A stretch of 64,000 nucleotides of DNA from the NCBI RefSeq assembly GCF_006345805.1, contig NC_042998.1, positions 179,614,001 through 179,678,000 on the forward strand, written 5' to 3'. The notes beneath the pieces are model-generated. The model was not told where the DNA came from. It did not search any database and saw only the letters and a list, made by a program, of their open reading frames with translations. This stretch comes from Octopus sinensis (Eukaryota). Below, piece by piece: positions 36,023 through 61,454 of the stretch (position 1 is its first letter; every line of letters begins with the position of its first letter). A program made the translations under genes and the position numbers.

Positions 36023-36053
<31 letters not shown>

Positions 36054-36399
36054 CACACACACACACACACACACGTACACACGTACGAAGATCAGGGGGG
36101 AAAAGAGAATACCTACACTGAACTATTGAGAAATCTGCAAATCTGCAGTTACTCTATCCAGATTACAAGTTCAGGTTTATACCTGTAATTATTGGGGCCC
36201 AGGGATAGGTAATACACTTCCTAAATACCAGTCTTGAGAAATTAGGCTTCAACGTTTCGAAAATTAGTTTTTCATTAGAAAAGTCACAGTGAGAAAGGTA
36301 CCCACAAACACATGCTTCACAAACATAAAACAAGCTAGTCAAGACGTCTCTATCTCAATATATTCTTTCCTGTTCTCCGACTCTGTCTGTCTCTCTCTA

Positions 36400-36483
<84 letters not shown>

Positions 36484-36599
36484 CATCTATCTATGTACCT
36501 ATCTATCTAATTACCGTATATATCTGTAAAACCTGGCATATAAAAGGAATATCTTTTCTCAAATGTTCGTGAAGTCTATATGTTTTGTTCATCTATCAT

Positions 36600-36790
36600 C
36601 TTATAAGACTTATGATCGAAAGGTATTCTAGTTATGGCCCTCGCCTCTAATATTTTTCAGATACAGTCCAGCAAAATCTCTTTATCTATTATGCTCCTTT
36701 CTTTAAAGATGGTAAGGTGTAATTTATAGGAAATTTGACTGGTATTTCTAGCAGAATGAGCCACTACTGCGAGCCCCTCCCTAGCTGGCT
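36600..36790 (+). repeat. Old dispersed repeat (core GATTTGGCTGCTATTTCTAGCAG-like)
   Basis: Similar segments at ~3405-3435, 15925-15975, 38755-38800(-), 45595-45640, 63065-63105 and 63245-63290(-). Confidence 0.65.
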
Positions 36791-37244
36791 CGTCTCACGA
36801 GATGTAATTTTCCCAGGTGTCAGCAGTTTGTAGTATTAGTCTTATGCATCGCTTCGATTTGTAACGTAGCTTAAATTTTCAAACACGCCAACATGAATTT
36901 TTGAGGTAGGAATTCCAATCTGGCTGATGATGAAGGCAATAATTCAGTAAACAGTAGAGATAGATAAATAAATAGATCATAATTGGTTGATTATCGGCCG
37001 AGGTCAGACATAATAATTCCAAGTGGTGTACTTTCGGCATTCACTAGAAACATAAGCAAAATTAAAAAGCGCTTATGGCGTCTGAACTGGACTCAGAGAC
37101 ATTATTATAATCAGGGTAAACACGAGAAATGCTTCACATTATTGATTGCAAGATAAAGAAGGAAAAGGCCGACACTGACCAAAAATTAGTCCGTCTACAT
37201 TATACACACACACACAACTAAATACACGTATACACACCCATATC

Positions 37245-37500
37245 TATATATGTGTGTGTGTGTATATATATGTATGTGTGTTTATATATATATACATGTA
37301 TGTGTGTGTGTATATATATATATACATGTATGTGTGTGTATACATATATGCATGTGCGTGTATATATATATATATACATGTATGTGTGTGTATACATATA
37401 TGCATGTGCGTGTATATATATATATATCTATGTATATAATATAGGTATGTATATATATATATATAGGTATGTAATATATATATATAGGTGATATATATGG

Positions 37501-37539
<39 letters not shown>

Positions 37540-37614
37540 TAATATATATATATATTATATAATATATATATAGGTCTGTATATAGATATATATATATATA
37601 TATATAATATATAA

Positions 37615-37651
<37 letters not shown>

Positions 37652-37802
37652 AATATATATATATAGGTATGTATATATATATATTATATATATATAGGTA
37701 TGTATATATATATAATATATATATATAGGAGGTATATACTATATTATATATATATAGATTATATATATAGGTATGTATATATATATATTATATAATATAT
37801 AG

Positions 37803-37835
<33 letters not shown>

Positions 37836-38023
37836 GTATGTATATATATATAGATATAATATATATATATATATATAGGTATGTATATATATATATATAT
37901 ATATAGGTATATATATATATATATATATACGTGTGTCTATATATATATATATATACGTATGTATATAAATATATATATATATATATATATAATATATATA
38001 TATATATATTATAGTTTAATTAT

Positions 38024-38075
<52 letters not shown>
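37245..38075. repeat. Compound (TA)n/(TG)n tract with recurring ATAGGTATG higher-order unit
   Basis: Direct reading of the sequence. Confidence 0.95.
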
Positions 38076-41000
38076 TTCTCTTATACACAAGGGATTCTTT
38101 TTATGTTTGTGGTCTGCATCACGTACAATGATATATGCACATACTATACGATTGAGGTGGGATAAGCATTGAATAAACAAGTTCTGCTATAATTAGTATA
38201 GAAGAAGACATGTCGAATATAAGGAAATATTACTCTGAGAGGCTGAGATATAGTCTGCCGATGTTATTCTTGTTCGTTAAAAGGTCTTTATGATAAGCAA
38301 ACATCGTAAATTGGAAACAAATAAAAAAAAAACGAAAAAAGCTTACGCATAATTCATACGTCTAATATTTCAACGTATGAGAGAAAAGGAACTCGTTATC
38401 TCAATTGGGATATACGGTAAGAGATTGGCACTGGAGACAAAGAGAAAGAGAGAAAAAGAAAGGGAGAGAGAGAGAGAGAGGGGAGGTGGAGAAAAAAAGA
38501 CCACTGTTCCTATGTGAGTTCACTAACATTCAAACCATATAAAATCTGGTTAATATAAAGAAAGGCGTGGCAAATATCGTAGAGCAAGAAGTATGACCCC
38601 GCGAGGCCAGACAGTGATGTGGTTCCAATCTTTATCTGAAAAGTATTTTCATTTAATTTACATATATAATACTTTTGGGAAAGTCATGAACATCACATTC
38701 CATTCTATCGCTTCTTAAACGAGCCAGCTTGGAAGCGTATATGTTTATATGGTCACTAGAATTGCTAAAAATAGCATCCGAATCTCTTTTGTATCATACC
38801 ATACTCTTAAAAAAAATAAAAATGAAGGGACACGTTGAATAATGTAGTCCTTGATATACAAAGTCTGAAATATATAAAAATAGCATTCTCATAGCTGAAG
38901 TGCATTTGGTCATAAATATGTGTGGTTAGGCTTCGCTATAAGTTATACAACCGTAGCAGCAACATCATTTATAAAAAAAAAGAAAGAAAAAAATTGTTTT
39001 GATGAGGTTTAAAGAAAAGAAAAAAAAAAGAAAAATGAAAAGCAATATTAAGAAGATAGAGATCTTGAAATTGGAATCAACTTTCAAACTGCTCCTTACA
39101 CTACAGATTTTTTTTGTAAAGGTATCAACACTAACACATCTATCTCCTCCCTTTAAGAATATAGTGCATTGTACTATGTCGAAGTGAAACAATATGAATG
39201 AAATGAAGATCGCAGATTTGCAGACATAATACAGTGTCAGATTAAATTGTAATATAATTGTTTATTAAAGGAAATATATATATATACATGTATATGTATA
39301 TATATGTGTATGTATGTGTGTATATATATATATGTATACCACAGCGAGGAACTAATTTTATATAAACAACATACCAGTTAGCTGTTCTGCTTACACTATA
39401 CACTAACCTAACCTCATATACATTCATTTGACGCACAATCATCTTAAACATCCCTGTTTGGCACCGATCACATTATTTAAGCGCAAACGCCCAAGGTTGG
39501 TAGCGAAAACAGTAACTTAAATCTATACTCATTTTGGCAGTATGTTTTTTTGGCACTCGAAACGCTCTTTTGGCTGTACATATAGAATTTTAGGTCTGAA
39601 TGCACAAATCTCAGGCAATATACTATTGGCATTATATAATACTAACCTGGCATCGTCTAAACAACTAGCTTCATAACATGTATATAGAATAGGGCAAAGC
39701 TAAATAGAAACTATTCAGAAGAAAATTTTCCCACTAATGTTCCCTGAAGATATTCGCAGCTGGCTAAAAGGCAGATATCATTTCAGTGAAAGGGTCTAGC
39801 GTTCATTTTCCTGCATCAACCAACAAATTTTTATTCCTGCTGGCAAAGCCCACATAAGTACCATGAATAATCTGATCGCTGGGTGCTGTCATTTGCGGAG
39901 GTTAGTCTGTTGAAGGCATCCGAATAGCGCCCTCGATACTTGCTCCATTCTCGCTTAGTCACTCGCGTTCTTTCCTGTAGTTCGAGTTGGGAATTGGGCG
40001 CGTCTCAAACTTATCTCTTTGAAATTGAACTCAGCAAAGTAAATCTCTCAGCTCTTTTGAACCAATATAAAACAAAATATAAAATATACTGCTGTACACG
40101 GTGCTAAGACAGCATATTTGACAAATTTTTCGTTCGTTACCTTACCTGAATTCAAATAATACAATAAAAGTTGGAGTGTTAAGGGCTCCCCTAAACTCCC
40201 TATACACACTATGAGAACCAAAGCGTTTCTATTGTTCTCCAACATCACAGTGTGTTCTGCAGTTCTGTCTAATCGAAACTAATATGAAATCAATTTAATA
40301 TTGCATCAAATGCTAACATACAACTACAACACACGTTACGCACCTTCCTTTTAAGCACTGCTGTAAACAGCGGAAGTGAGTTAGAATGTTAAAACTTATT
40401 GTCCATACACAACAGAGCTGAAGGTCAATCTGTGCCGAGCGGTTTTACTTTGTATGTTTTAGCTTCTTTACTATGGCGACAATCCGGATACTTATTGATC
40501 AGACCTCGTAGAGTTTACTTTTGGATAAATTGCTAATCTGTCTTACACAACTTTCCCATACAACCTGGTGCATAAAATAAAATGTCCTATTCAGTGATAT
40601 AACGAAACCTTTGTACAGGATTTGAAATCACGTACGCTGGATTAGTTTTCTAATAATGTATCAATTCAGCCCCTTAAAATTTCACATAGACATCAGATAA
40701 GCAATAGTTCCTGGGTTTTTTTCTTTACATATATATATTTTAGTTCACTTGTTTTCTTTTCATTTATATATTTTCCATTCGATTATTTTTGTCAGTGTTT
40801 TTATCAGTCCGGTCCGATAACTTTACGATAAATACTTAAATTCAATTATCGTTATATCATATGAAGCGAAAATCCTTATAGAAAATAAAAACACATAAAA
40901 ACCAAGTCCAAAAATTTTAAAAGAAGTAAAAATAAATTAAATGTAAACATTTCAAATGTAAAGCAATCAGTTATCTTTTTACTATCGTAATTAATGTGAC

Positions 41001-41986
41001 TTGACTTAAGTTAGACATTTTTGTGCTCTGTTGTTTAAAAAATGATTAAAAATCTCTTGTAATTTTGTAAATTATGGCTTTGCTGGAAAGTTCCACGGAA
41101 CAGTTGTTATACGAGAAAAATTTATTTCGTAACTTGAGGAGAAATATGGAATTTTTCTTTAGAATTATAAAGTTTAGAATTTTAAAAGTCGGTTCGAGGT
41201 TGGTTCTGACGTTTATGACATTCCTCTGTACAATAATAATGTAGACAAAATGAAAATTTCTATAACCAGGCTAGGGAATAAATCAGTTTAGAAATGACTT
41301 TCCTAGGTGCTTCTAAACTTAAATTATTTCCCCTTAAACGACAACTATCGACAACTAAAGGAGTCCCTACACTGTTTCTGCTTAAGAGACTGGATAGTCA
41401 TAGGTAGAAATTTTTGCTCGTAAGTCTACTCAGCTGGACCTGACTTGGGCCAAAGAACGACAACGATTCTCAATTGTCAGGTTTAAATTCAGACGTTAGA
41501 CAACCCTTTACTGTGGCTTTACCGTTTCTATTAACGACGCTGATGTTTTAAACTCCAAGACTGACCAGATCAAACACACACATGATCAAAGATGTTCCAT
41601 TTTCTTTTGTATTTCTAACAAGCTGAATGACTGCATAAAGGCTCACTCAAGAAGGCTCGTTAATATTTCGGTGAATATAAAATCAGATTCATTTTCATTA
41701 AACTATAGATTCCTTTGCATAACTAATCGCTTTTCAATGGAGAAGAAATTTAGAAACTGAAAAATTTCTATTCCCCAATTCCCTTAAATATCTAAACATT
41801 CAAGACTTCAATGATTTCTCCGAATCTAACAGAAGGAACACAGATATAAGTTTACAGCAAACTGATTTAACGAGTTCCTTTTAGAATTTCAGTTCGATCC
41901 TTTTCATCTGACATTGATATATTTAGAAATAAACGATGAATATAAATTCAGATTTAATCTTCATGTCGATTTATATGACCAACATC

Positions 41987-42046
<60 letters not shown>

Positions 42047-43299
42047 TGTGTGTGTGTGTGTGTGTATGCGCGCGCACATACACACACTCACACACACATG
42101 TACACCATAAAAAGTAAGGAAGTATGAAAGGTTGAAATAATTTCACCGATCGAATCTTTTGAATTTCAGCTGCAAGTAACTCTGCGCTATACTCCTCTGG
42201 ATAACTGTCGTCTGCTAGCCGAGTCCATTCGAGATGCTATCTGTGATAGCTATTCTATTCCATAAATCCATACATTACAATATAAATAATTATACACACA
42301 CACACATACACACACTTTTTTTAATTAATAAGGACTGACTAAAAGACTCCATACTATTTGTAAAAAAAAATATTAATTGTCATTAGTGACTCTTTTGAAA
42401 TTTCGCCGTAATTAGCTGTTTTTAGAACGATTATTAGCAATAAATATTACACACAGAAACACACATGCACATACAGCAATATTCGTCCTGAGATAACATT
42501 GCTTATGAACGTGTATAAAAAGCACTACATCAGTGCGACATGAAAAATTGCTCCAGAAGCGGCCAGCAAGAACACCAGCTGCCTCTTGGCTTTTTAACGC
42601 TCTTCAATAACATGTACTCACATCCAGCCACATGCTTAGACGAAAATTTGTCGCCTCTTATGTTAGGAACATTGAATTCACCGATGTTGCGAATAGCTCC
42701 CCAGCTGAATAAAAATCCGGTATACGTATTAAGGCAGTATTAAATTAAACAGCCATCTACGTCTCATATTTTATTTCAAATGATAGAACTAAGGGTGTTG
42801 GCCTGACCTGGTTTCGATATTAGATGGCATCTTTCCAGAGATCACACACACATCTTTGCCGGTCCACGGAATGAATTATAAGCTATAACTAATAAGCTGT
42901 TTATATCGACTAAATATCGTATCTGAGTTAATTCGATTTGCATATATAATGGTTATGTACTTAATTATTTCATTACTGATGTTTGATCTTGAGTGTGTTC
43001 GATTCTTGGAAATGTCCATTAAGGCATTCTTTTATATGCAATTTAATTAACTTTAGCCTTCGCTATGACGTAGAGTCGAATATACTTGGATAAATGTAAA
43101 TACATCTGTTTTATTTCTCTGTAGAGAGAAAAGAATGAACTTATATTCCAACCAAAACAAAAATCAGATGAGACCACTTCCCGTCTGTCCGCAGACACCT
43201 GCTTACAGATAACTAAACGGTTTAGTTTAATGGTTAAAATACTAGTACTGGTGTGCAATACAAGTGATGTGGAGCTATACCTTCAAGTAAATTTCAATC

Positions 43300-43550
43300 A
43301 CCACTACTTTATTATCTCCCGTTCTTCCTAGCCCTCCTGTGTGACCCCTCTGTCCGGCGTTCGCCATGATAGATCGCTAGCCACAAAACCTTTTCCTATT
43401 TTCTCTCCCTATTTATCACTGTGTTCCTTTCTGTGGAAGAGCGTAGGCTCGAAACGTAAAAGACTTTCTCACTTCCCGAGCGTTGAACTAATACATCTGT
43501 TTGTTGTTTACACACCCGTCTTCGTCTTTTGTCTTTGTAAATTAACGCAA
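43300..43550 (+). mobile_element. PLE-like fragment with a variant hammerhead (43427-43462)
   Basis: cttt-CTGTGGA-a-gagc(gtag)gctc-GAAA-c-GTA-aaag; followed by a TA-rich tract. Confidence 0.7.
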
Positions 43551-43571
43551 TACGTATACATACAAGTATAT

Positions 43572-43604
<33 letters not shown>

Positions 43605-44083
43605 ATTACATATACATTCATGTATGTATATATATACATGTACATATGTATATATATATAGTATATATATCTATATACATTCATATATATATATATACAT
43701 GTATATATATATATGCATATATACATTCATGTATGTATATATATACATGTACATATGTATACATATATACATGTCTATATGTATATATATATATACATCC
43801 ATATATGTATATATACATGTATATATGTATATAAATATATACATGCATGTATATACATAATACATGTATATATGTATATATACATACATCCATTTATGTA
43901 TATATATAAATAGACACAAGTGTATACATATATATATATACATTCATATATATATATACACATGTATATATACATGTATATGTATACATATATACATACG
44001 TGTGTGTGTGTGTGTAGGTAGATATATATATACACATACATATACATACATAAATACACACGCACAAGGGCCAGGTATATATA

Positions 44084-44141
<58 letters not shown>

Positions 44142-44533
44142 GTGCGTATAACAAACGAATCAGCATTCATTTCGTATTCATCAAGAAATTTACGTGATAT
44201 GCGAAAAAGAACGCACAGATGACAATAGATTAGTTTTGAATTAACAAATTAGTTACAGATGACATAGATTATCAGATTAGGGACAAATATCATAGATTAC
44301 GCACGTTTTAATATATCACCGAGTCTGGTATTCGGCTTATTGGTTTCCCTGAGCAAATAAATAGTAAAGTGTCAAGGCTAAGGAAAGACACACCGACTAC
44401 AGATGAAATACAATACTTCACAGTATAATATAAATCTCAACCGTTGAAGCCTGGCAAAACCGATGGAGCGCCAGAGTGCGAATACTTCCTTTTAACGTAA
44501 ATACGTATACTACACTAGTGTGCGTATGTGTAT

Positions 44534-44823
<290 letters not shown>

Positions 44824-44931
44824 AGTAGTTGAATGAATTATCCTAGTATGGATAAATCGGTTAACCGATACCCGGGTATTTATGTCGAGAATAAAGGAAT
44901 TTTTTAAATCGTCGTTCGACTCTATTCTTTC

Positions 44932-44968
<37 letters not shown>

Positions 44969-47166
44969 GATATACACATACGCGCCACAACGAAACATCA
45001 CACACACACACATATATATATATATAAATATAGTTTAAGCTACACAGTTGATTAGATATGCAAAGGTATTATAGTAGTATACATTTTATAGAAGTAGATA
45101 AAAGCATCTTCAATCAAATATGATTTAGACGGAAGAAGAAGGTAAACCAGTTTAAAGTTTCTAAATCTACACTTTCCATTATGCAGCGTCTTTCTAATAT
45201 ATTGGAATAAAATGAAGTGAGCTAGGAGCCATAACCAATCAGATCGAAAAGGGCACAGCAGAAGTATTTTTAACCCTCGATTCCATTTTGATTTGTTCAG
45301 ACTAAAGATCGGCCGAATGGAATCTCAATGGAATTTACACCATAAATTGATAAAGTATTCGTTCATTGTACAGTGTTCCCACTGCTTACAACTGTAAATT
45401 ATACTGTTATGCGATCTCATCACAAGCTAGATGTTGTTTTTATTGTTGTTGCTGTTTAAATTTATGTTAACCATGATCAAATAAACCAATTCTGAAAGGT
45501 ATTCCAGTCATAGTGATCCCGTCTTTTGAGACATAGTTTGTCTCAGACAAAATTATCCAATGTGTCATTCCCTTTTTTCAAAGACAGCAGAAGTGAAATT
45601 TGAGAGGAACTTAGTTGCTGTTTCTAGCAGGTCATACAGTTACATAGAGAATGGGCAGGTTTCCTTTTCAACGCCAAGGGTAAATTGCAAGTGTATGATA
45701 AATTAATAATTTCCCGAAATCCTATCTATGCTATATATGAAATCACTGTTTTGAACCTTAAGGCTTAAACATAGATTTTTGTAAATGATTTTAAGAATTT
45801 CATAAAAGCAGGGTTTCAAATTTGATTGCGAGCAAGTGTTCCCACCCCTGGCCAAAATATTTTGGTGCGATCCATCAGCTAGTGAGGAAAAGGACGAATC
45901 CATTGAGAGTCAAGTGAATTGCTCACAGATAGGAATGTTTCGAACCGTCGGCACGGGGAGAATAAACATATAGTTTATTCTCCCCAGTTTTCTTCTTAAT
46001 TTGCCAGCTACGATTCAGAGAATTATTGCATCAAAATAAAGAAAACTATAGATTTTTGTGCGATTAAAGACCAAGAGATTAAAGTAAGAGAAGAACGTAG
46101 ATGTAATACCTTAATCTCTAACTTCAACTTCGCACAGATTATTTGATGATGGAAGAAAATATAGCATTAATGCAATAATCATGATTGTAGTCAGCTTATC
46201 ATTTGGGTGGAGATATTTTTCTCTATCTTTTATTTGATTTCATTTGGGAATTTGCTTGGATTTTTATGCTATTTTCTGCTTTATTTTCTATTGTTTTATA
46301 TTATTTATTTTCATTTTTAAATATTTTGGTTAGGAAGTAAGAAACAAAGTAGTCTTTTATTCTGTATTTGTTTTATCCAGATTTGTGTTTTACCATTGTT
46401 TATTTTTGTTGTATGATTTTGACCTTAGTAAACGATAGGGGACAGAAGAGGACAAAAGTTTAAATAAACTGGAAAGAAAAGCGTTTTGTTATAGCTTCAT
46501 ATCACAAACAATAAGAATGGGCGTGTTATCGCGAAAAAAAAAGGAAGAAAATATAATAAAATAACAACTGCAGTAAGAAAAGTAACGAAGAGAAAATAAC
46601 AAGAACAAAGAAAAAAGATAAAAGTGTAAAGTGCAGACGTCTGATCACGGGTGCAATGTTTTGTGAGTAACATAATGACAGTGGTGGCCGGGGGTTGTGT
46701 ACGTTCATTGAAAACCTATGTGTCTGTATGAATGAATGAATGAATGCATTGAGTGAGACAGACATCTGTTTATAGTTGACTATAGCAATCGGTGCAAGTT
46801 GGGGTGAATAAGTTGCATCTTCGGTTGGAAATAGAGGCGGTGGAGGTAGTGATGGTTTGTGGTGGTGGTGGTGGTGGTGGTGGTGGTGCAGATAGAATAA
46901 TATGAAAGTGTTTGGCAATTAGAGGTTGGTGTTTTCGTACAGAGAAAATCTAGATAACAACAAGAAAACAAAAAAAAACAAAACAAATAAAAACATAAAA
47001 CGGCCACATGCATATACACACAAGAAGTAGCAGTTTTATTGTAAATAAAGCGTGAAGATATACATACGTACACACACACATACACACATATATACACACA
47101 CATATATACACACATATACACATACGCATATACATATACATATACACACATATACACATACGCATA

Positions 47167-47209
<43 letters not shown>

Positions 47210-47219
47210 CATACATACA

Positions 47220-47388
47220 GTGGAGGCGCAATGGCCAAGTGGTTAGGGCAGCGGACTTGCGGTCGTAGGATCGCGGTTTCGATTCCCAGACCGGGCGTTG
47301 TGAGTGTTTATTGAGCGAAAACATCTAAAGCTCCGCGTGGATCTGGCAGGGGATGGTAGCGACGTGTCTGTGGAGTGCTCAGCCACTT

Positions 47389-47392
<4 letters not shown>
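47220..47392 (+). mobile_element. Family B SINE with internal deletion
   Basis: Head nearly identical to 23476-23610, fused directly to ACGTGTCTGTGGAGTGCTCAGCCACTTACAC (equivalent to 23752-23782). Confidence 0.88.
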
Positions 47393-47429
<37 letters not shown>

Positions 47430-48414
47430 AATGCACATGCGTGTGTGTGTTGCATTGTAAAGATTAAGACAAGCATTTTCTGATATAATACCTCAATACT
47501 TGTTTTGGAGTAACATTTACTATATGCATAGGGGCTGACTCTGGCTTCCTGGTTTGGCCCTGAGAGGAGTTGGAGTAAGGATTTATTTTAAAGTTTTAGA
47601 TTTCCTTAGCCAGCTCGACAAATGGTCGTTTCGATAGCCAGTCCAACAACAAAGACGAGGGCACTTAACATCTCTGTCTACTTCACGTGGTGTAAATTAC
47701 AACACAGTAGCTGCTCTGTAACATATTTCATTTAGCGAGCCGATGGTAGTCGGCTTCTCCGAAAGAAAAGGAGAAAGCAAGAATAATAATGGAAGTGACA
47801 AATAAGAAGCGAACCTACACACTCTGGAGCCATTCCAAAACATTTACATCAAACAGATGTAGAATAGTCTAGCTTCGTCGTTTAATTCACAATTTAAATC
47901 ATACATTTTATATGCTTTAAATATGTTAGTGAACGTTCGAGTTAATGTTTTATTGAAACGATTTACAACTATGAGAAAACTCCTGATAGCAAAAGCAGCA
48001 ACGCACAAAACTAAATATGTATAAAGTATCTGATGCATTCACATCAACATCATTAAGATAACAGAATATAACCGGGAAATTACATAGTTTTTGCCTGATT
48101 AATTTTAGACAAATCTTTTGACCTTTACGCCTTTGTGGCGGGTAAAAGTTACAGCTATAATTGAAAGACCGAAACTGCCATAAACTATTACTTAATCAGG
48201 GGAAAATATCTCTTTCACCCTCTGGGAAGTCAATATAAATTTCATCTCTAATTAATTTCCTGGTTTGGGAAAAAGTAAACTTCTTTTTGCTTGCGCGCGT
48301 GTGAAGTACACCGCGAATTTGTTAATGAACGACTCGTTCTTGCTAATTGCTTTAATTAGTATGCAAAAATATCCGATAACTTCGTGTTAAAATAGTTGGA
48401 AAAGCTCAACTTAC

Positions 48415-48463
48415 CTTGAAAGCTACTTTTACGTGGAATCAATTTATCTGTAGGTTTGTACAC

Positions 48464-48510
<47 letters not shown>

Positions 48511-48580
48511 TATAAATGTATGTAAATCTGTAAATCTTACCTGAAAAATAAAGAAAGAAACATTATATACAATTAGCAAA
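48415..48580 (-). other. Candidate recursive splice site (AG|GT) with downstream RS-exon donor
   Basis: Minus strand reads GCTAAT (branch-like, 48577-48572)...TTTCTTTCTTTATTTTTCAG|GTAAGA (junction 48541/48540), then AAG|GTAAGT at 48415/48414. Confidence 0.55.
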
Positions 48581-48949
48581 GCTTGTGTGTGTGTGTGTGT
48601 GTGTCAGAGAGGGAGAGAGATATAAAATTGTATTTTATCAAATTCATTGAATTTGTAGCTTCCAGTCACTGTAGACACTAATCAGACGAAATAAAGTCGG
48701 AACAATGAATCAGTAACTGGACACAAAGTGAGACGTGTTAACTGACAAGATAGATGTTCAATGATTTATAAATCAACTCATGATGGCTGCGTTGGCGTAT
48801 GGAATTAAAATAAAACAATTTCACTTGGAGACTAATTTCTTAAGTTTGTTGAAGGAATAGTTTATTAATTATTCGTTTATATATCAAACAAAAATACGAA
48901 GCCATAAATTTGGGGTAAGAGTAATTAATAATGTCTATATATTCGTTTT

Positions 48950-49200
48950 GCAAGATTCTTGATGCGAAAGCGTGTGTTGAAACATATATTGTTGTACTTA
49001 GGGACGGTCATGTTGCCAGTTTAGCCAATAAAAACACATGCACTATATATTTGATGTTAATTTGCTTCAGCTTTATTTTTTACATTAATCGTATTTCGGC
49101 CAGAGTTCTTTCGTCCACACTTCTGTGACCTCATCAGTGGTCCTTTGCTTTCTTCTTTCTTATTTGTGTGTCTTTCTTTACTAAGGATATGTCATTTTGT
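48950..49200 (-). mobile_element. Probable PLE-like fragment with CTGATGA...GAAA core
   Basis: Minus strand CTGATGA-ggtca...tggcc-GAAA at 49137-49094; stem I is not recoverable. Confidence 0.5.
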
Positions 49201-49224
49201 CAGTTATATGGATCCCAATATTAT

Positions 49225-49660
49225 TCGTTAGCACACCGGGTAAAATGCTTAAGCATTTTGTCCGTCTTTACGTTCTGAGTTCAAATTCCACACAGGTAGC
49301 CTTTGCCTTTTATCTTTTCGGGGTCGATAACGTAAGTACCAGCTGAACTCTGAGGTCGATGTAAATCTACTTATCCCTCCTTCGAAATTGCTAGCCTGGT
49401 ATTTCATTATATTGACCCTAATCCCTGACTAGTACCATATATCCATATTTGACAAGTGTAAAGCAGTGAGCTTGGCAGAATCGTCAGCACGTCTTTACCT
49501 TCTGAGCTCAAATTCCACCGAAGTCGACTTTGTCTTACATCCTTCCGAGATCGATGGAATAAGTTTCGATGGATCGCTGATAGGGGTCGGGGATCGATGT
49601 AATCGACTTTCACTTTTCGTCGAACTTGCTGACCTTGTGCCAAAATTTGAAACCAATATT
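49225..49660 (+). mobile_element. Two tandem diverged family C SINEs with an alternative tail
   Basis: GTTCTGAGTTCAAATTCC...TTTGCCTTTTATC (49272) and TTCTGAGCTCAAATTCCACCGAAGTCGACTTTG (49500); tail TTGCTGACCTTGTGCCAAAATTTGAAACC. Further decayed copies at ~12770-12930(-), 15205-15300, 24040-24180, 49920-50100(-), 52060-52170 and 55605-55730. Confidence 0.8.
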
Positions 49661-51785
49661 TGGCTGGCGTTTTTTCATTGATCACCCACCCACGGAGGTA
49701 CTTTTCAGTTAACCTTGCTTCTAGTAAAGGGTCTATATTTTCATTCATGAATATCAATGTAGGCAAAATTTTGCAATAATCGATATGTCGCTACATCCGA
49801 CACTTGTGGTATATTATCGTTATTCAAGTTCCGAAAATCCAATTTCCTGCTTTGAGAAGACCGATGAAAAGAAGGTGGAATATGAAGTCCCTAACGCAGA
49901 AAACGGAACAAATACTGTAATGCATTTTGCCTGAAGTTTTAACATTTTCGCCAATCTATCGACCAGTACTGGTACTTTAATTCTCAACCCCGAAAGGATG
50001 GAAAGAAAATTTAACTTCGACAGGATTTGAACTCAGAGCATAGTGATTCGGAACAAAAACTGCAATACATTCTATCTAATGCTTTAACACCTCTGTCAAT
50101 TCACTACCTTTGACCATAAAAGCCTGTAAAAGAAATTTTAGCTCAATAGAATTTGAACTCAGAACATAAAGATTTGGTACTAAGTATCACAATGTACTTT
50201 ATCTGACATCCTATTGTTTTATATTTAAAGACTCACTTTCTGCTTAAAAATTTGAAACCCCTCATCTCTGGTTTAAATAGCTAAAAACCATCTAACCTGA
50301 AGATTCAGCTACTGCACATACATAATCGTTGAAACTGGAAAATGTGTGTGTGGGGAGGGTGGGGGTAGAAAATCAGTTTGTATTGTGGGTTAAGTTCCAT
50401 GAATACTCTATTCTACTTGCCTCGCTACACCCAATTGCAAAGAATAGACTTCTAAACTTCTGGAATTTATTATACTCAAGAAAAGACCATCAGAACATAT
50501 AGAAACGACTGAATTTGACACAAGCCAACAAGGGAGCGTTTACGCGGTCGCGTCGTTGTTTCTGCTAAACATAATAACCAAATCTCCCTAACAGATTACC
50601 ATTAAAATAAAACGAAAATATAGAAGAAAAAAAAAGGAGATATTAGATGAAATTCGTCTGAAAAACAAAACAAAAAGCCTGGATAACCAAGGTCATAACA
50701 TGATTGATAATAAGTCAGATCAAAAGCTGACGTTAAATACCTAAATACCACTTCTATGAAGAAAGAAGCCTGTGAAATCATTGCTTTCATTAACAACATA
50801 GCGATGGGATAAAAGATTTAAAATAATTTTTTTCAAGTACTACTGGCAGTACCAAAAGATTAAAAATAATTTTTTTTCAAGTTAACCACAAAGTAAAAAT
50901 TAATAAACAAAACCGTTTCTCTTATGATATTCAAACGTGTAAACGCTTTTCCTACATAATTCAGTCGCAAGCTTATGCTGAACATCTATAGCTAACAATG
51001 AAAATTCTAGTGACAATGACACACACAATAAGCTCCTTAGAATATTTTTTTCAAAAGTAAAATACTATTCGTACCACGCTTTTTTGTTAGTACTACCTTG
51101 CAGTATTTCTTAGTATGCGGTTAACGATGGATATGTGTATGCGTGTATATAGATATATACACCTACTTATATGTATGTTACATATATGTGTATGTACACA
51201 CACCTATATATAATGATTGTTATATGTACGTATGTATGTACGCATAGTGTCCACAAATTTCTTATATAGTTTCCACATCACGAATTCTGAAGTGTACACT
51301 TCTTAGTTTGTAATGAGAATTGGAAAGAATAAAGAATTATGAGTAGAATATTTTAGTTTCTAGAACTTGTAGTCACATGAAAATTTGAGAACGTTTACTA
51401 ACATACATTCCCCCTCATTCTTTCTCTTTCTCCATGTGTGTGTGAAACCATTTATCGTACTCATACACACACACACCCTTGCACAAAAACACAAAGGTGA
51501 AAAAAAAAAATGAAAAAAGGTAGGGAGATAAATTTTTATATTAGTAAGACAAATTTTTTTTGATTTACGTTTTTAAAAACGAAAAAGAAATTAAAATTTT
51601 CATTACTGCTTTATTTATTCCCTTTCCTCTCTTTCCATTTTAGAATAACAAAGTAGTAAAGAAACTTTAAAAAAAAAACCTTAAAATGCAACAGTAAAAT
51701 CTCTATTGAAATATTTTTGTAATATAGATAGTTCGAAATAAACTCAGGTGTGTATTATTCTGGTGTAACCCATCTAAAATTGCTA

Positions 51786-51819
<34 letters not shown>

Positions 51820-52294
51820 CTGCAGGATATTTCTTTGGAAGAAATCAAATAGAAATATAATAGAGAAAAATACTAAATTAGGGAATGCTGAGAACTTGAA
51901 GCTTAATGGAAGCCTAAGCTATAATTCAATATATTACGAACGTATCGTCTTACAAAATCCTTATGATATTTGAGTATCTAAGCGTAGTGAAATGACAATA
52001 TCCGTAGAATATCTAATGTAACACCTTGCAGTATTGAGTTGTACCTGTTTATGTTTTGAGTTCGAATCAGTTTGAGGACGACTCCGCCTTTTACTCTCCT
52101 GGAGTGGCCATTTAAATAGCAATCAAGTACAGGTCTCTCCAGTAAAAATGTGTGGCCTTATGCTTATGTAGCATTCTCCCTATGGCATTTCTGTACCTAT
52201 TTATGCATGGTATACGAAGAGGCACGGCATAAAAGACAGACATGAGGTAAATCATATTCCATTCATCCTCCATTTAAAATTAAGTTTACGTTTA

Positions 52295-52680
52295 GGCCCA
52301 GGCATAGTTGTGTGGTGAAGAAGATCGTTTTGCAACCACGTAGTTTTGGGTTCAGTCCCACTGCGCGGCACTTTGGGTGTCTTCTACTGTAGTTCCGAGC
52401 CGACCAACGTTTTGGGAGTGAATTTGGTAGAGGTGTGCGCTTGTATGTGTGCGCGCATGTGCGTGTGTCTTTGTATTTGTCCCCAGCCCAACCCTACCCC
52501 ACCACCACATGACAATCGTGGTCCTCGGTCCTCGTAACTTAGATGTTCAGCAAAAAAAAAAAAACCGACGAAAATAACTACCAAACTTAATATACAAGTA
52601 TTGGGAGCGATTTGTTCGACTCATCCCTTCAAGGCGGTGCCCCAGCATGGTCACAGTCCAAAATAAAAGATAAAATGTAA
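52295..52680 (+). mobile_element. Diverged family A SINE
   Basis: GGGTTCAGTCCCACTGCGCGGCACTTTGGG...AGGCGGTGCCCCAGCATGGTCACAGTCC. Confidence 0.8.
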
Positions 52681-53301
52681 GAAGCCATGATAACACTACG
52701 AGAGTGAGAACGATTCGATTTCCAGTCATAGGAATTTCATTTCACATACCAAGGCTACAGAAATAATAAAGTTTTGTTGATTCAATTTTATTTAATACTC
52801 GTCTTTTCAATTGCAAATTTTATATTAAACTAGTTTCGAAATTTTATTTGTATTGCTCAATCAACAATTGTAATTACCTGTTTAAATTAACTACAATCAT
52901 GTTTAAAACTTAGAAATATGAAGAAATAATTTCAGCGAAAAATATAAAAATAAAGAAAAAATAAAAGAAAATTGTTAGGTGAATGTGATTATTCCGAAAC
53001 TTCACCTTTATTACAATTTAATGGAGCTTTTGTGAATAATTATATTTTATAAAATGACAGATTTAGGTGTATAATTTTTTTTTTATATGTGCTCTTGTTA
53101 GATGGCAGTTAACTTCCAACACGAAAAGGTTCCCCATTTCTTGTATAAAGATTGAATAAATTTAAATACTAGCAATTTATTTTCGTCTGTATATATGAAA
53201 ATCAGTCAACCCCGCCACACACACACTCACACGCATTTGCTTATAGATATGATATTATGTATTATATTGAATTATATACATGCATACATACATATATATA
53301 T

Positions 53302-53335
<34 letters not shown>

Positions 53336-53416
53336 CATACATACATATATATATATATATACATACATACATACATACATATACATACATACATACATAC
53401 ATACATACATACTACA

Positions 53417-53450
<34 letters not shown>

Positions 53451-54945
53451 CATACATACATACATACATATATATACTTTGGGCTTATAAATATAATGCA
53501 TATATATGTGTGTGTGCGTGCATATAATATCTACAGAAAGAGAGCGAGAAAGCTTGGCAATAGATAAAAACAAAGATTGATAGGTAGGCTTATTGACAGA
53601 TAGATTGATAGCTAGATAAACATGCATGCATACGTCACACATACATACATCATACATGATGTATTCACATATACATGCGCGAATGCATTTAGCCAATACC
53701 CATATATTAAACGAATTGAAAGAAATGAAGTGAATTTCTTTCTTTATTTTTGTTTTTGTCTTCTTCCATCTAACCAATTTACTCGATTCTTCTTGCCCGT
53801 TTCTCTCTGACTCATCCGACCACGCAACAAGGGAGCATTTCCCTGCAGCTAGCCAACCGATCAATACTTTGAAATCTGTTGCTTCAAACCCCCAACCTGC
53901 CACATTGGCCAACCATGTCTCTTTTGTGCCAGAAAAGATTCTTCTCTAAAGATTATTTGGCAGAATGATCATTCCATTAGTTGTTTAAGGTTAATGAAAC
54001 TTTATTCATTACCTAAGTGGCACATTCTTTTGGAAAACACTATTTGATCAGTTATTTGATTTCGTACAAAAACAAAACAAATAAAGAGCACAAGGAATAA
54101 AGAAATATACGAGCTGTTGGAAGCGAGCATACAAAGTACTTTTGTTGTGTGTCTTTTAGTGCACATATATTAGGTTATATGGCTGCCACTTGCTGTTTGA
54201 ATGAATGAATGTGTGTGTGTGTCTGTCTGTCTGTATGTGTGTGCAAGCGTGTGTAAGAATGAGAAAGAGAAAGTAGAGAGAAAAGTTTAGGTGCTATGTC
54301 TGAATAACACTAGCTGGAACAGAATACATGCATAAAGCCAAATTGATATTCTTATCCTTAACGTAAAGTATTTTATTAACGTACGTATTTAAAACAAATA
54401 AATTGGCAGAAACAGGGCGTTGACTACGAGACACATAGTATTCTATCACCTTTACAATTCTACTAATGCATTACCTACACTTTTATTAAATAATATTAAT
54501 ATACATTATGATGTATATAGATTCCCTGGGCGCTCATTTTGACTAATGTTCACATGTGTTTTCTTATATAATGATTTGTACATCCCTTAATCTTAGCTTA
54601 GTCCCCAAAAGGAATCTTATATAATATAGTTCGTTACATATGGAAAACGCAACTCAGAAATGAACACTAACACTAATGCTTTACTCCAGGCATTGCATGG
54701 TTAGGCAGGATTAATGCCAGCAATGCATAGATTGATGCGTTCTAAGTGAAGTCTCTAGCGAAAATACATTAGCGCATAGCGGATGGATTTAGTTCTGAGG
54801 AAGAAAGAGATTTACTTTTGGGGAAAGAGTTGCTGAAATAAGAGACATGCTATATAGCTAGTTATTTGTGTGATGCAGCAGAAATGAGTAAGGCACAGAA
54901 GTATAGGGTGAAGGTTGAGAACATGGAAGTCATTTTTGCTAAAAC

Positions 54946-55196
54946 CTGTGGTTCTCAACCATTTTTTGCCTATAGATCCCTTTAATTTCTATTTTACTCG
55001 GGTGGACCCTCATAGCCATTTGATATATAAAAGAAATCTTATATATTCATAATTAAATATTATCAGGAAATGTATAAAAGAATTAAAATATTTTGTGTAA
55101 TGTAGAGGTATAACCAATTTATTGGACATACATTTCAAGACCAAAATCTTATATGGACCTAAAAGGGTCATATGGACCAGAGTTGAGAACAGACTG
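54946..55196. mobile_element. hAT (Charlie-like) MITE
   Basis: TIR-like ends CTGTGGTTCTCAACC ... AGTTGAGAACAGACTG. Related decayed copies at ~1625-1722, ~6380-6680 and ~15705-15891 (ending TTGAGAACCACT). Confidence 0.75.
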
Positions 55197-56049
55197 GTAT
55201 AATCCAGTCTGAGGTTGAAGATATGACTATGTGGTCTGTGGATGCCAATTGCTTAAGAATTCAGCATCATAGATGCATGACAACATTATATACCCAGTAT
55301 TTAATATATCAACATTTAATAAAGAAAAATATGGGCGATACTGTGTCAAAATGTATAGGTGGCAGGGCAATAAACTAAGTACATATGTTATTTGCCTCTA
55401 CGCTCTTTGTAAGAATTGGTTCTGGATTGGCTTCGACTTTTTTTTCTTCCAGTTTAGAGAGAATTTGCACCAGCTCTACAGTGCAGCCGTTACGTTGATT
55501 TATATCTCAACTCTAAGGAAAAGAAAAAAAGGTTTACATAAAAAAAAATACCATGGCAAAAGCGTTTGAGCGTCGAATAAAATTTGTTGCTCTACGTTCC
55601 GGCTCTATACGCCCTTTGTTCAAATCCTGTCATTTTTACCTGTTGTCCTTCATGGGTTCGATAGAATAAAGTACTAGTCAAATACGGGAGTTGGATGTAA
55701 TTGACTATCCACCTTGGACTTGTGCTTCCATTAGTCATATTTAGTGTTATTAGTGCAACACTGCTTAACACCAATCAGATTTGGATTAAAACTTATGGAT
55801 TCTTTTGAGAAACATTTACAAGCTGTCATCTTATAAGAGTGAAGTACCATACTTGCCAAGTCTGAGCTATGGTACTGCACTCCTGTCTTATCTGAAAACC
55901 ATTCCGAGACTGACAAATGATTTGATCCTTTCACATGAAGTCTTATATAAACATATTCTTATTTGGAATTAATTAGCAATAAACTCAAAACACCATTCGA
56001 TACTACCAACGTATTTTATTTTTAAAACCAGCTTATATATATATATATA

Positions 56050-56265
56050 GTTAATCCAAACATGAAAACACCAAGAGAAAACACAACAACGCGAGGACGT
56101 GGAACAAATATAGTATTATTGGACGCTCAGGAAGGAAGGGAAGAAGGAGGGTTTTACGTTTCGAGCGGAGCTCTTCGTCAGAAACATAAGAAAAGTAAAG
56201 ATCCAGAGAAGGGAAGACGGAGGAAAACAATCGCCAACGGTACACACGTGGTCACATTTTGAATG
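56050..56265 (-). mobile_element. PLE-like non-autonomous fragment lying between (TA)n and (CA)n
   Basis: Homologous to the 10225-10352 arm; contains the hammerhead motif. Confidence 0.75.
56151..56185 (-). ncRNA. Minimal hammerhead ribozyme motif (intact core, GUA site)
   Basis: gttt-CTGACGA-a-gagc(tcc)gctc-GAAA-c-GTA-aaac. Confidence 0.65.
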
Positions 56266-56304
<39 letters not shown>

Positions 56305-56309
56305 ACACA

Positions 56310-56361
<52 letters not shown>

Positions 56362-56364
56362 CAC

Positions 56365-56545
56365 GGTTTAAATTTATAGCAAACAAAAGACAGAGACAGA
56401 TGAGGTAACAACAAGCAGATGTAATAGAAGCTCGGGGAGAATGGATGTTTTGATGTTTCGAGCCTACGCTCTTAGACAGAAAAGGACGAGAAGAAAACAG
56501 AGAGAGAGAGAGAGAGAATGTGTCGGGATTAACGGTTCTACATGT
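56365..56545 (-). mobile_element. PLE-like fragment, same subfamily as 43300-43550
   Basis: Shares AAGAGCGTAGGCTCGAAAC and the downstream ACATCTG(T/C)TTGTTGTT...CTTTTGT segment; degenerate core CTGTCTA. Confidence 0.65.
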
Positions 56546-56984
56546 TGAAATGCACACACTCATACGCGAGCGAGTGCACAAACACACACATACACACCAC
56601 ACACACATACACACACACGCACATGTCGCTCTTTGTGCAGTAGCGTTTAGGCCGCCACTACACCACCGCCATTACTATGCACATTGTGTAGTCACCAAAA
56701 TCGACCAAACTCTGATAGTGATACACCAATTTAGCCACAGGCAACTAACTGGAACTTGTAAAAGTGCGTGCGTGCATGTATACATACATATACACATACA
56801 TACACCCACGCTCACAATTATATCGTTAAAAATAAAATCTTACAAATTTTTTTTTTTTTAGTTCATTTAGTAACCTGAAATAGTTTCTGGTTCAAGAGAT
56901 CAGAATTCCAAATTTAGCTCATTAATAAATTCATCAACAGCATGATCACAGTGGTGAAAACGATAAAAATGGTAGAATAACTAA

Positions 56985-57281
56985 TAATGATGATGATATT
57001 GATGGTGATGGTGATGGTGAAAGAGGATTGTAAAGATAGAAGTGCTACTGATGGCAGTGGTGGCGCTGGTGCTGGTGCGAAAACAATGGACATAATGATG
57101 GTATTCTTGATGGTGAAAGCGACAATGGCGGCGGTGCTGTTGATTGTAAAGGATTTTCATAATGACGATGGCCGTAGTAGTTTTAATGGCGATTGGGACA
57201 CTACTTGCGGTGGTAGTGGTCATGGCGGTAGTGTTTTTATCTTTTGTGTTATTTTGTTCTAATATGGATGGAGTTGATGAC

Positions 57282-57314
<33 letters not shown>

Positions 57315-57350
57315 CAACGATGATGATGAATGTGCGTGGACGCGATGGTG
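56985..57350. repeat. Degenerate (GAT/GGT)n trinucleotide region
   Basis: GAT, GGT and GGC runs; produces a spurious poly-His ORF on the minus strand. Confidence 0.85.
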
Positions 57351-57974
57351 GTTTTGGCAGAATCGAAATTGAATTTGCAGTCCAATGTGCTTTCAGTTAA
57401 CAAGTTTCCTTGGCAAAGCTTAAATGACTTCATCAGGGAAGGAAAAAAATAAAAAAAACAAAAACCAATAAGACAAAAAAATAAGATTTTTTATCCTCTC
57501 ATTTCTATCTCTGTTTTTGCCAATATCTACATCTCAAACATTGCCTATAACTCACTCACCCCCTCCTCTCGCTCCCTCTCTCTTTTTTTTTTTACTCTCT
57601 GTTCTCTTCCTTTCTGTCTTCAACATTCCCACACACTGTTGATTATTTTCTTTTGCTATTAAAATATCCGCGTCTCATACTTCTAACTCTTCTTTTTTTC
57701 CTTACATTATTATTTCATACTTCTTTCCATATCTCTCGCTCTCTCTGCATGTCATTCATAATGCGTGTCTCTTATTCATATGCTCTAGTTCTTTCATATT
57801 CCAGAACATTCTCTGTAGAAGGTATTTCTACGTCTCTCACCAACAGGTTCTAAGTATTTGCATGTGCATGTGTATGTTTGTGTGAACGTATGTATTTCTG
57901 TGAACATATATGTGTATATGTATGTGTGGATATGTGTGTGTGGATATGTGTGTATATATGTGTGTGTGTGTGAG

Positions 57975-58352
57975 TATTTATATAAAGCTGAAGTTGTCTG
58001 TGTATGGAAGGTTTGGTAGACTTCAACTAACACCATCTCCTCCGGGACCCTGCGGCGCAAGTTGAACAAAATTGAGAGTATGGTAGAAGAAGGCTTGCTC
58101 TTCATTCCGTAGAAGATAAAATTCAAATCGGACCATGTTAAAACCAAATATTATTAACATCAAAAAGGTGCTTTTCTACTATGAAAATCCCTATTTTTTA
58201 CGATTTTTTTACTGCTGTGTCGCCATTTTTCGGTGTATGTCAACCAGAAAAATGCTTACTTAAAGAGAATAACAAACATAATGCAAAATTTTTACTTTTC
58301 AAAAATTCCAATTCTAAAGGGTCGAAATAAACCCGAGCAACGCCGGGCGATA

Positions 58353-58355
<3 letters not shown>
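57975..58355 (+). mobile_element. Non-autonomous Helitron-like element
   Basis: 5' TATATAAAGCTGAAGTTGTCTGT start and 3' GC hairpin CCCGAGCAACGCCGGG about 8 nt from the end; the terminal CTAG is not retained. Recognition-based call. Confidence 0.55.
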
Positions 58356-58419
<64 letters not shown>

Positions 58420-59050
58420 GTATATATATGTGTGTGTGTGTGTGTGTTTAAATTCGGCGATTTCTTCACGCCAGATATACTCGGAGTTGAAGCCAAAAGC
58501 CGTCGTCGGGACAGCATGAACCATCGATCTACAATAGCGAGTTTAAACAAATATATGAACCCTGTTATATAGACTGGGTATTTTATTGCCGTTTGTATTT
58601 CGAGGTGTACTCACACAAACACACACACACACACAGAGTGACACACACACACACACTTCCAAGGAGCAAACTGTACATTGTACTACCAAGAGAGAACTAA
58701 ACATCAGTTAATTGTAAAGATTTATTGTGGGAAATTGAAAGTTCAATGCTCAACAGTTGTTGGAACTTCCGAAGTCTCATTATGTATGTTTGCATGCATA
58801 CATGTATGTATGTATGCATGTATGTGTGTATGTATGTATATATATGTATGTATGTGCGTATGTATGCATCAATGTATGTATGCGTATGTACATAGATGCA
58901 TATATACAAACATATCTACACAAACACACGTATTTGACACCACATTTTCTTTGTTACCGCTTCGCTTTCTTGTACGTACATCTATTCTTTCTTCCTTTCA
59001 AATTTGCTCTTTCGGTATTTCTTCTTTCTCATTTCCCATACAGGACTACT

Positions 59051-59087
<37 letters not shown>

Positions 59088-59182
59088 TGCTTTATCTTTC
59101 ACTCATTTCTCACATGCTTAATATATGCACGCCTTTATTGTTACCCATTTTCTCATACATGCACGTGCTCGCGCACTAAGAC

Positions 59183-59220
<38 letters not shown>

Positions 59221-60094
59221 TATATTATAATATATACATGCGCACACACACATACATTTATATATACACATACATACACACACATACACACACACAAGCA
59301 CACAATTCACGCACCCACGCTTCCACAGAACACACGCACACATATAAATCGTTCATTTAGTTTCACACACAAAACACCTGACCCCCCCACTACAACACTC
59401 ATTCCTCCTTCTCTCTCTCATTGGCACTTCCTCTCTCTGCCCCCTCACCCTCTCTCTGTCCCTTTCCCTCTCTCTCTCTCTCTGTCCCCTTCCCCCCTCT
59501 CTCTCTGTCCCTCCTGTCTCTCTCTCTCTGTGTTCCCTTCTCTGCCACTTCTTCCTGTCTGTCTCTGTTTCTCTCTCTCTCACCTTGTCCTACATTATCA
59601 AACACCTTTCTCTTTTCAATCGCATGGCCAATCATATACTGGTCCATCTACTCAATTCCTTTAATACAGTTACAGATTTGAATTCCGCTTAAGGACATAT
59701 ATTGATCTGACAAATCAAAACAAAACTAAAATACAAAATACAAAACAAAATGGAAGTATAAAAAAAAACACAACAAAAAAAACTACGAATATATAATGCA
59801 ACATATGTAACAACCATTTCACCATCAGTTCTCTCCCCCCCACCGCCGCCCCAGAAAGGTGGAAGAGAGACTATAAAAGAAATAAGTAGAAAAACTAAAT
59901 TAACCAATATGTGTGCATGAGTAGTGTGTGTGTTTGTTTGTCTGAGCGTGCGTAATATTCTGTGTCGTTCATTTTTATTTTCTAAATTAAGATGGTAAGT
60001 TAGTGTTTAGTATTCAGAGCAAAGTGTTGCGAATGGCGCACAATAAAATGCAAAGCTGCTTTCCTTCTCGTTCACCACCTTTACTCAAACATGA

Positions 60095-60125
<31 letters not shown>

Positions 60126-60198
60126 ACACACACACACATACACACACACACACACACACATACACGTGCGCGCAAATTGACACGTATATATCGAATTC

Positions 60199-60395
60199 TT
60201 GCATGTCTGTGTTTGTCCCCTCAGCATCGCTTGACAGCTGATGCTGGTGTCCCCGTCACTTAGCGGTTCGGGAAAGAGACCGATAGAATAAGTACTGGGC
60301 TTACAAAGAATAAGTCCCGGGGTCGAGTTGCTCGATTAAAGGTGGTGCTCCAGCATGGCCACAGTCAAATGACTGAAACAAGTAAAAGAGTAAAA
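60199..60395 (+). mobile_element. 3' half of family A SINE, inverted relative to the adjacent copy
   Basis: Nearly identical to the reverse complement of 60492-60681. Confidence 0.9.
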
Positions 60396-60494
60396 GACCT
60401 ATACATACAACAAACAACACACACTAACACACACACACATTTATACAAACTTTCATATGTGTTTATATATATACATATATATCTCTTTTTTTTT

Positions 60495-60686
60495 TACTTG
60501 TTTCAGTCATTTGACTGCGGCCATGCTGGAGCACCGCCTTTTAATCGAGCAACTCGACCCCGGGACTTATTCTTTTTGTAAGCCCAGTACTTATTCTATC
60601 GGTCTCTTTGCCGAACCGCTAAGTGACGGGGACACCAGCATCAGCTGTCAAGCGATGTTGAGGGGACAAACACAGACATGCAAACT

Positions 60687-60724
<38 letters not shown>

Positions 60725-60895
60725 CATATATACGACGAGCTTCTTTCAGTTTCCGTCTACCAAATCCACTCACAAGGCTTTGCTCGGCCCGAGGCTATAG
60801 TAGAAGACACTTGCCCAAGGTGCCACGCAGTGGGACTGAACCCGGAATCACGTGGTTGGTAAACAAGCTACTTACCACACAGCCACTCCTGCGCC
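60495..60895 (-). mobile_element. Full-length family A SINE
   Basis: Head GGCGCAGGAGTGGCTGTGTGGTAAG...GGGTTCAGTCCC, then CORE-like GCACCTTGGGCAAGTGTCTTC, a microsatellite and the tail. Confidence 0.9.
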
Positions 60896-61454
60896 TATAT
60901 ATATATATATACAGACATACATCCATAACACAAGTACATATGTGTGTGTGTGTGTAATGTATGCATACACACACGTACATTTGTGTGTGTGTGTATTATA
61001 TATATAAATTAGATTTCACTCATAAAAGTTCCCTTGCCTTGCTTAGGTTTAGTCTTTTCTTGGAAAAGATCTTATATCTTTTTACATCACCCGCTCCTTG
61101 TTTTTGTTCTAAGGTGGGTGCAGCCTATTTTTCATTCACAGAACAAATGATAGAAGATTATCTTATTTTCGGACGAATTACTTTCTTCGAGGAATTGATT
61201 TGAAAAAACAAACACACCAAGATATATTTAATCTATGTTGTATTTTTAATTATATTCCATTTGAATTCGCGTTTCAACCTCAATAAGTCCGTCAGTACAG
61301 AATCTGTCTGTGTTTGTTCCACCACAGACAACCGGTGTTGGTGTGACTACGTGCCCGTAATTTAGCAGATCAGTAAAAGCGACTGATAAAATAAGTAACA
61401 AAAAAATACTGAGGTGCCCCAGTCTAATAACTGAAACAAGTAAGAGATAAAAGG

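Follow-up and report, generated by a model that had tools for sequence, protein, structure and literature searches.

A probable recursive splice site in a 259-kb octopus intron, and signs of a genome-wide set of similar sites

How giant introns are removed has been worked out mainly in flies, with hundreds of silent ratchet points, and in mammals, with a handful. A stretch of Octopus sinensis DNA raises the question of whether a mollusc may use the same route. Within a window of 64,000 nt (the whole stretch of DNA analyzed here; G000:C2:179,614,001-179,678,000), the original prediction had recognized on the minus strand a ratchet point, that is, an acceptor fused to a donor, followed by a short cryptic RS-exon, and had taken the window for part of a giant intron that is removed stepwise. 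Our analysis makes it quite probable that the site is a ratchet point for the two-step removal (157 kb and 102 kb) of intron 1 of a FREM2/ECM3-like gene. The features on which this reading is built are, in window coordinates:

1..64000, minus strand: interior of intron 1 of the FREM2/ECM3-like gene, from protein mapping and RNA contig joins
48572..48576, minus strand: branch-point-like CTAAT, of presumed function, a motif that does not discriminate test from control sites genome-wide
48544..48560, minus strand: polypyrimidine tract, 16 of 17 pyrimidines, acceptor score 12.0
48535..48543, minus strand: probable ratchet point CAG|GTAAGA, boundary 48541/48540
48415..48540, minus strand: candidate cryptic RS-exon of 126 nt, missing from the spliced contigs and proteins examined
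48467..48506, no strand: (AT)20 microsatellite in the cryptic exon, a repeat seen in the window
48409..48417, minus strand: downstream donor AAG|GTAAGT that ends the cryptic exon, with its boundary at 48415/48414

The predicted architecture was found letter by letter. Reading the minus strand, the CTAAT (48576-48572) places its A at -33 from the acceptor boundary, as had been estimated; the 17-nt tract described as almost pure pyrimidine runs from 48560 to 48544; and CAG at 48543-48541 is directly followed by GTAAGA at 48540-48535, identical to the opening six bases of intron 1. A strong acceptor is thereby immediately abutted by a donor at 48541/48540 (G000:C2:179,662,541/540), as in a ratchet point. 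The second donor likewise lies where it had been placed, 126 nt on from the site, and is close enough to delimit a cryptic exon, at +126 nt compared with the ~50 nt typical of flies. This interval has 21% GC and owes 40 of its 126 nt to the microsatellite. It is in frame, and no stop interrupts the host's phase, its sole open frame. The site had been called canonical; this is right for the layout and slightly overstated otherwise, given an A at +6 of its donor, a long in-frame cryptic exon and the stronger donor at the end of that exon.

For the host-gene search, 200 kb were retrieved on either side of the window. At 179.82 Mb, a minus-strand frame of 1,824 codons contains a Frem_N and 12 Cadherin_3 stretches; its closest relative is extracellular matrix protein 3 of Octopus bimaculoides, and an O. 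sinensis cluster protein is 99.9% identical across exon 1. This exon ends at 179,819,963 with AAG|GTAAGA, exon 2 (90 nt) occupies 179,560,921-832, and the remaining exons follow at 179.40-179.32 Mb, likewise on the minus strand. The window falls inside intron 1, which measures 259,041 nt (G000:C2:179,819,962-179,560,922) without an assembly gap, the end of exon 1 lying ~142 kb past the right edge of the window and the start of exon 2 ~53 kb past its left edge. The postulated giant intron of a minus-strand gene is thus identified. On its sense strand, where a ratchet point is expected, the site stands 61% along the intron and divides it into 157,422 and 101,619 nt. The description of the window as exon-free holds for host coding exons and not for everything else, as fragments of retro-element-like ORFs and a 2.5-kb contig-covered stretch are present. 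Because the exon finder used is insensitive and missed the 90-nt exon 2, the absence of other host exons rests on protein mapping.

RNA contigs agree with this gene structure. Among four runs at the end of exon 1 (X1, X11, X9, X10), X1 and X9 have contigs in which exon 1 is followed directly by exon 2, the latter identified by matching exon-2 sequence, and X11 yielded no matching contig. These joins indicate that the minus-strand gene is transcribed, which counters the possibility, raised with the original prediction, of a strand without transcription, and that the 126-nt interval is skipped. Two octopus proteins (P0001 and P0123) also contain no insert between exon 1 and exon 2, so that in the main mRNA the site is not simply the acceptor of an included exon, the other outcome that would have spoken against it. 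The cryptic exon is accordingly missing from mature mRNA as seen in assembled contigs, which rare inclusion could escape, and the interval has neither the transcript or protein presence nor the coding-like composition of an included coding cassette exon. No contig bridging 48541/48540 was found among the matches listed for X1, X9, X10 and X2 on 45000-53200 (mostly short repeats), nor did the X1, X9 and X10 contigs at the end of exon 1 connect it to the site; both results come from assembled contigs, which drop rare forms. One X1 contig stops 25 letters inside the cryptic exon, too short to count as bridging the donor, and an unspliced X1 contig spanning exon 1 and the intron continues unbroken.

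A separate observation concerns X10, in which a contig connects exon 1 with a cryptic acceptor that lies 1.36 kb inside intron 1 (L023:604 = G000:C2:179,818,604, minus strand), with a stop five codons on. This join, seen in one contig of one run, would yield either decayed RNA or a shortened protein that lacks the membrane anchor and the later domains.

How exceptional is the site? Scored with generic splice matrices, it ranks first of the 2,394 AG|GT sites that 484 kb contain when both strands are counted (15.4; the runner-up, antisense, reaches 10.0), and it is the sole match in the window, which bears out the impression that no other site there is as clean. Its acceptor scores 12.0 compared with 8.2 for the real acceptor of exon 2, and the donor of the cryptic exon scores 8.2 compared with 6.5 for the rebuilt donor (generic matrix). 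The site thus departs from both parts of a general tendency, which is no strict criterion, for the rebuilt donor to be the stronger and the RS-exon to be out of frame. None of 100 dinucleotide shuffles of the window produced a match, a null that is too lenient because shuffling destroys pyrimidine runs; when such runs are kept, ~0.05 matches are expected empirically per window, counting both strands, and 0.007 if the count is limited to the sense strand of intron 1. Of background windows of 200 nt, 0.3% attain the score of the cryptic-exon donor. In a DNA search, 48300-48800 matched only microsatellite-type pieces elsewhere. We also considered whether the site is a copy of a motif-bearing repeat family and rejected this, its match being limited to the motif at 9.4 bits compared with 77-124 for members. 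In intron 2 (~159 kb), the top sense-strand AG|GT site scores only 3.6; neither this intron nor the 157-kb first segment of intron 1 contains a strong AG|GT site, so such lengths are apparently spliced without one.

On the model established for flies and vertebrates, from which all four steps are taken, the acceptor would be recognized jointly with the donor 126 nt downstream by exon definition, and exon 1 would be spliced to 48541/48540 before the polymerase has left the intron. Because exon 1 ends in AAG, this join would restore AAG|GTAAGA, which matches the donor of intron 1 itself in all nine bases. The rebuilt donor would then be spliced to exon 2, and the cryptic exon would be lost with the second segment. 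Stepwise removal at this very site is what we infer from these elements.

If ratchet points are at work in the octopus, their signature should extend beyond one intron. Exact counts over the whole genome gave, after Y14, 35 CAG|GTAAG and 39 CAG|GTAAH compared with 9 RAG|GTAAG and 49 RAG|GTAAH (odds ratio 4.9, p=1.6e-4 for the contrast of CAG with RAG), and the RAG control argues against ordinary donors as the source of the excess. The looser pattern Y10-N-YAG|GTAAGT occurs 213 times versus 53 for RAG, an excess of ~150. For the site's own motif class the count is, at face value, 35 versus 99 in the control, a control figure inflated by a repeat, with 6/6 copies retrieved belonging to one family. 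A reversed-pattern control (116 versus 28 for CAG sites, 97 versus 81 for TAG sites) did not serve as the main control because real acceptors swell the forward count.

We then compared the flanks of the full set of 70 GTAAG sites in the two strict classes with those of 39 controls. At +6, a position outside the search pattern, T is present in 44/70 sites versus 13/39 controls, and in 42/60 versus 9/29 after removal of 20 rows with BLAST matches to other loci. A donor scoring at least 4 lies within 100 nt in 23/70 sites versus 2/39 controls, with a background of 5%, using a matrix written before the 70 sites were viewed; a regex variant of this test, devised after viewing some sites, gave 45/70 versus 7/39. 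The resulting cryptic intervals (n=26) have lengths evenly spread modulo 3 (8/9/9), and 13 of them have no open frame, which argues that they are not coding microexons. Their lengths are at most 89 nt in 21 of the 26, all of which are exceeded by the 126 nt of the FREM2/ECM3-like site. The +6 A variant occurs in eight of the 70 sites, and just two of these eight, one being the FREM2/ECM3-like site, have a good downstream donor, so this subgroup taken alone looks near chance. A positive T-over-A skew on the site's strand was seen in 47/70 sites and 21/39 controls (p=0.09 between groups), and in 35 of the 44 +6 T sites, a subgroup picked afterwards. Sites and controls were separated neither by branch-like motifs (27/70 versus 11/39) nor by AG-free zones (p=0.32) or CpG ratio.

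The arrangement of the sites is a further indication. In a set of 221 chromosome-scale sites, which excludes rows on small scaffolds and 16 unlisted rows, neighbors 5-250 kb apart share the same strand in 21 of 23 pairs, at a median distance of 138 kb, which overstates the true spacing because strict patterns miss sites. Random placement, for which the sizes of four contigs were assumed, predicts 2.6 same-strand pairs, and 21 was never reached in 5,000 tries; 131 control sites gave one pair 5-250 kb apart. Such a same-strand excess is expected of signals in long transcription units. Of the enrichment on the sense strand of long introns that had been suggested as a check, the excess and the co-orientation are both found, and the host strand is shown directly for two genes only. 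We consider it probable, at a somewhat lower level of confidence, that the octopus has genome-wide recursive splicing of the fly type, with ~150 or more ratchet points, cryptic exons of ~50 nt and co-oriented series ~50-200 kb apart, a spacing that suggests wider steps than the fly pattern. As the site is one of many such genomic signals, octopuses likely remove giant introns stepwise like flies.

The second gene with a directly determined host strand lies on C13. Three ratchet-like sites on the plus strand (4,211,329, 4,284,061 and 4,381,360; L165-L204) are the top three of 1,847 AG|GT sites in C13:4.1-4.5 Mb, each with a donor 46-55 nt downstream and with nothing similar between them. All three are upstream of a plus-strand DUF7044 exon (L198:5693-5830) that belongs to an O. 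sinensis DUF7042/7043/7044 protein, the opening 18 residues of which are absent from the plus frames of the 400 kb searched. The sites therefore likely sit within one intron of more than 335 kb, unless the exon for the first 18 residues falls in one of two gaps, with step lengths of 73, 97 and 54 kb. They are textbook ratchet points and better test cases than the FREM2/ECM3-like site.

Set beside known systems, the octopus sites resemble those of Drosophila (Ubx, kuz, Bx) as described in PMC8605326 and PMC6110457: a tandem acceptor and donor lies deep in a long intron, near its middle, and a short cryptic exon with a second donor at its end is skipped in mRNA. The octopus population shares the preference for GTAAGT, and its donors, mostly 30-90 nt downstream, compare with RS-exons of ~50 nt. 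In fly ratchet points generally, according to PMC8605326, the rebuilt donor is the stronger and RS-exons are out of frame, whereas the FREM2/ECM3-like site has +6 A, a 126-nt in-frame exon and the stronger donor at the end of that exon. Octopus steps also look longer than those of flies (157 and 102 kb in the FREM2/ECM3-like intron; on C13, 73, 97 and 54 kb), and the 159-kb octopus intron without a strong site differs from the 63% of fly introns above 40 kb reported to carry a ratchet point (PMC8605326, PMC6110457). A further difference is that the octopus case is known from sequence and assembled contigs, in which no RNA intermediate was seen.

Vertebrate RS-sites (Sibley et al. 2015, via PMC5126111 and PMC8605326) are similar in their YAG|GT and in a rebuilt donor that competes with the donor of the RS-exon. 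The same two sources note only nine fully suppressed RS-sites in long mammalian introns, and Table 2 of PMC2773006 gives little motif enrichment for large vertebrate introns. The octopus, in contrast, displays a clear genome-wide excess, and the RS-exon of the FREM2/ECM3-like site has no stop in the host frame. In that table, RP-sites are computationally enriched in large introns of sea urchin, mosquito, bee and beetle, and as in that survey the octopus motif excess is tied to the transcribed strand of large introns. No mollusc appears in the species table and main text of PMC2773006.

Could AT-rich, microsatellite-flanked intron sequence merely resemble a ratchet point and never be used? We regard such a chance match as unlikely. 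By the control counts, chance would supply between about a quarter and a third of the GTAAG sites that fit the strict pattern; the +6 A subgroup is small and mostly without downstream donors; and a site picked from a whole-genome scan may be one of the rare matches that will turn up. Chance would nevertheless have to account for a sense-strand position within a 259-kb intron (expectation 0.007) and for an acceptor above the real one of exon 2 combined with a donor reached by 0.3% of background windows, in a site outside the motif-bearing repeat family (9.4 bits versus 77-124).

The skipping of the interval in the X1 and X9 contigs and its absence from P0001 and P0123 weigh against another explanation, namely a rarely included alternative exon (+42 residues), or a decoy that engages the splice sites without the second step from the rebuilt donor. 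Such an exon would encode a low-complexity peptide (21% GC, (AT)20), repeat-number changes not divisible by three would presumably shift its frame, and cryptic-interval lengths across the population are not frame-biased. What speaks for it is a length of 126 nt, a multiple of three with the host's phase as sole open frame, a full-consensus donor that outscores the rebuilt one, and the fact that exon 1 does join another cryptic acceptor in intron 1 (X10, one run). We judge it distinctly unlikely, and since inclusion and recursive skipping may coexist, it would only partly exclude a ratchet point. It is very improbable that the acceptor serves a separate intronic non-coding transcript, such as one represented by the X9/X10 contigs at 50270-52745 (depth 10-34), which, read along the host's strand, end 1.7 kb upstream of the site: no joint toward the site occurs among the contig matches listed, these contigs may come from either strand, and the donor right after the AG would be left unexplained. 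The ratchet-point reading accommodates that donor as well as the skipped interval.

In the literature searched, with subscription journals largely outside, we found no report of recursive splicing in octopus, cephalopods, molluscs, Lophotrochozoa or FREM2, in line with the original prediction, whose author knew of no characterization in cephalopods; nor were ratchet points discussed there with bilateria. The mechanism is already known, and the octopus is likely a further case in a lineage for which no report was found. A genome-wide system, if real, would have no described precedent among molluscs. Taken together with insects and sea urchin, it would suggest that bilaterians ancestrally removed giant introns in steps, with step length scaling with genome size. 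A mollusc with giant introns and fly-like sites would add a third lineage, with coordinates ready to test. The FREM2/ECM3-like site, whose cryptic exon is in frame and ends in the stronger donor, lends itself naturally to testing the donor-competition rule.

Other series, each with three to six ratchet-like sites on one strand, were seen at C13:49.51-50.62 Mb (minus), C12:4.17-4.43 Mb (plus), C18:51.37-51.76 Mb (plus), C15:63.42-63.54 Mb (minus) and C8:24.38-25.05 Mb (minus), and probably mark giant genes. Such series can flag hidden giant genes, which matters as these introns appear to break gene models. In O. vulgaris, two protein entries represent the FREM2/ECM3-like gene, the first stopping just past exon 1 and the second beginning in exon 3, and an Argonauta protein and P0003 also end soon after the exon-1 sequence (related entries P0121, P0122, P0002), which suggests that giant introns break the gene models of these homologues.

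Some observations concern repeats and the wider locus. An interspersed repeat family (L123-L128, L086, L120) carries an acceptor-like pyrimidine tract, CAG and GTAAA, with GTAAGT in copy L120, and is a possible route for the origin of ratchet points. CpG counts per 10 kb change abruptly between ~50-160 and ~215-380 just downstream of exon 2 (G000:C2, ~179.55 Mb); the CpG-rich side holds exon 1 and intron 1, the CpG-poor side most of intron 2, which may mark a methylation boundary within the gene. Within the window, 33226-34844 and 30139-31396 hold broken reverse-transcriptase-like ORFs with a YADD motif, and the second region includes a 39-nt tandem repeat at 30811-31040. The 2.5-kb intronic stretch at 50270-52745 is covered by X9 and X10 contigs (depth 10-34) with few differences, has poly(A)-like hexamers on both strands, and is possibly a separate non-coding transcript or an alternative last exon.
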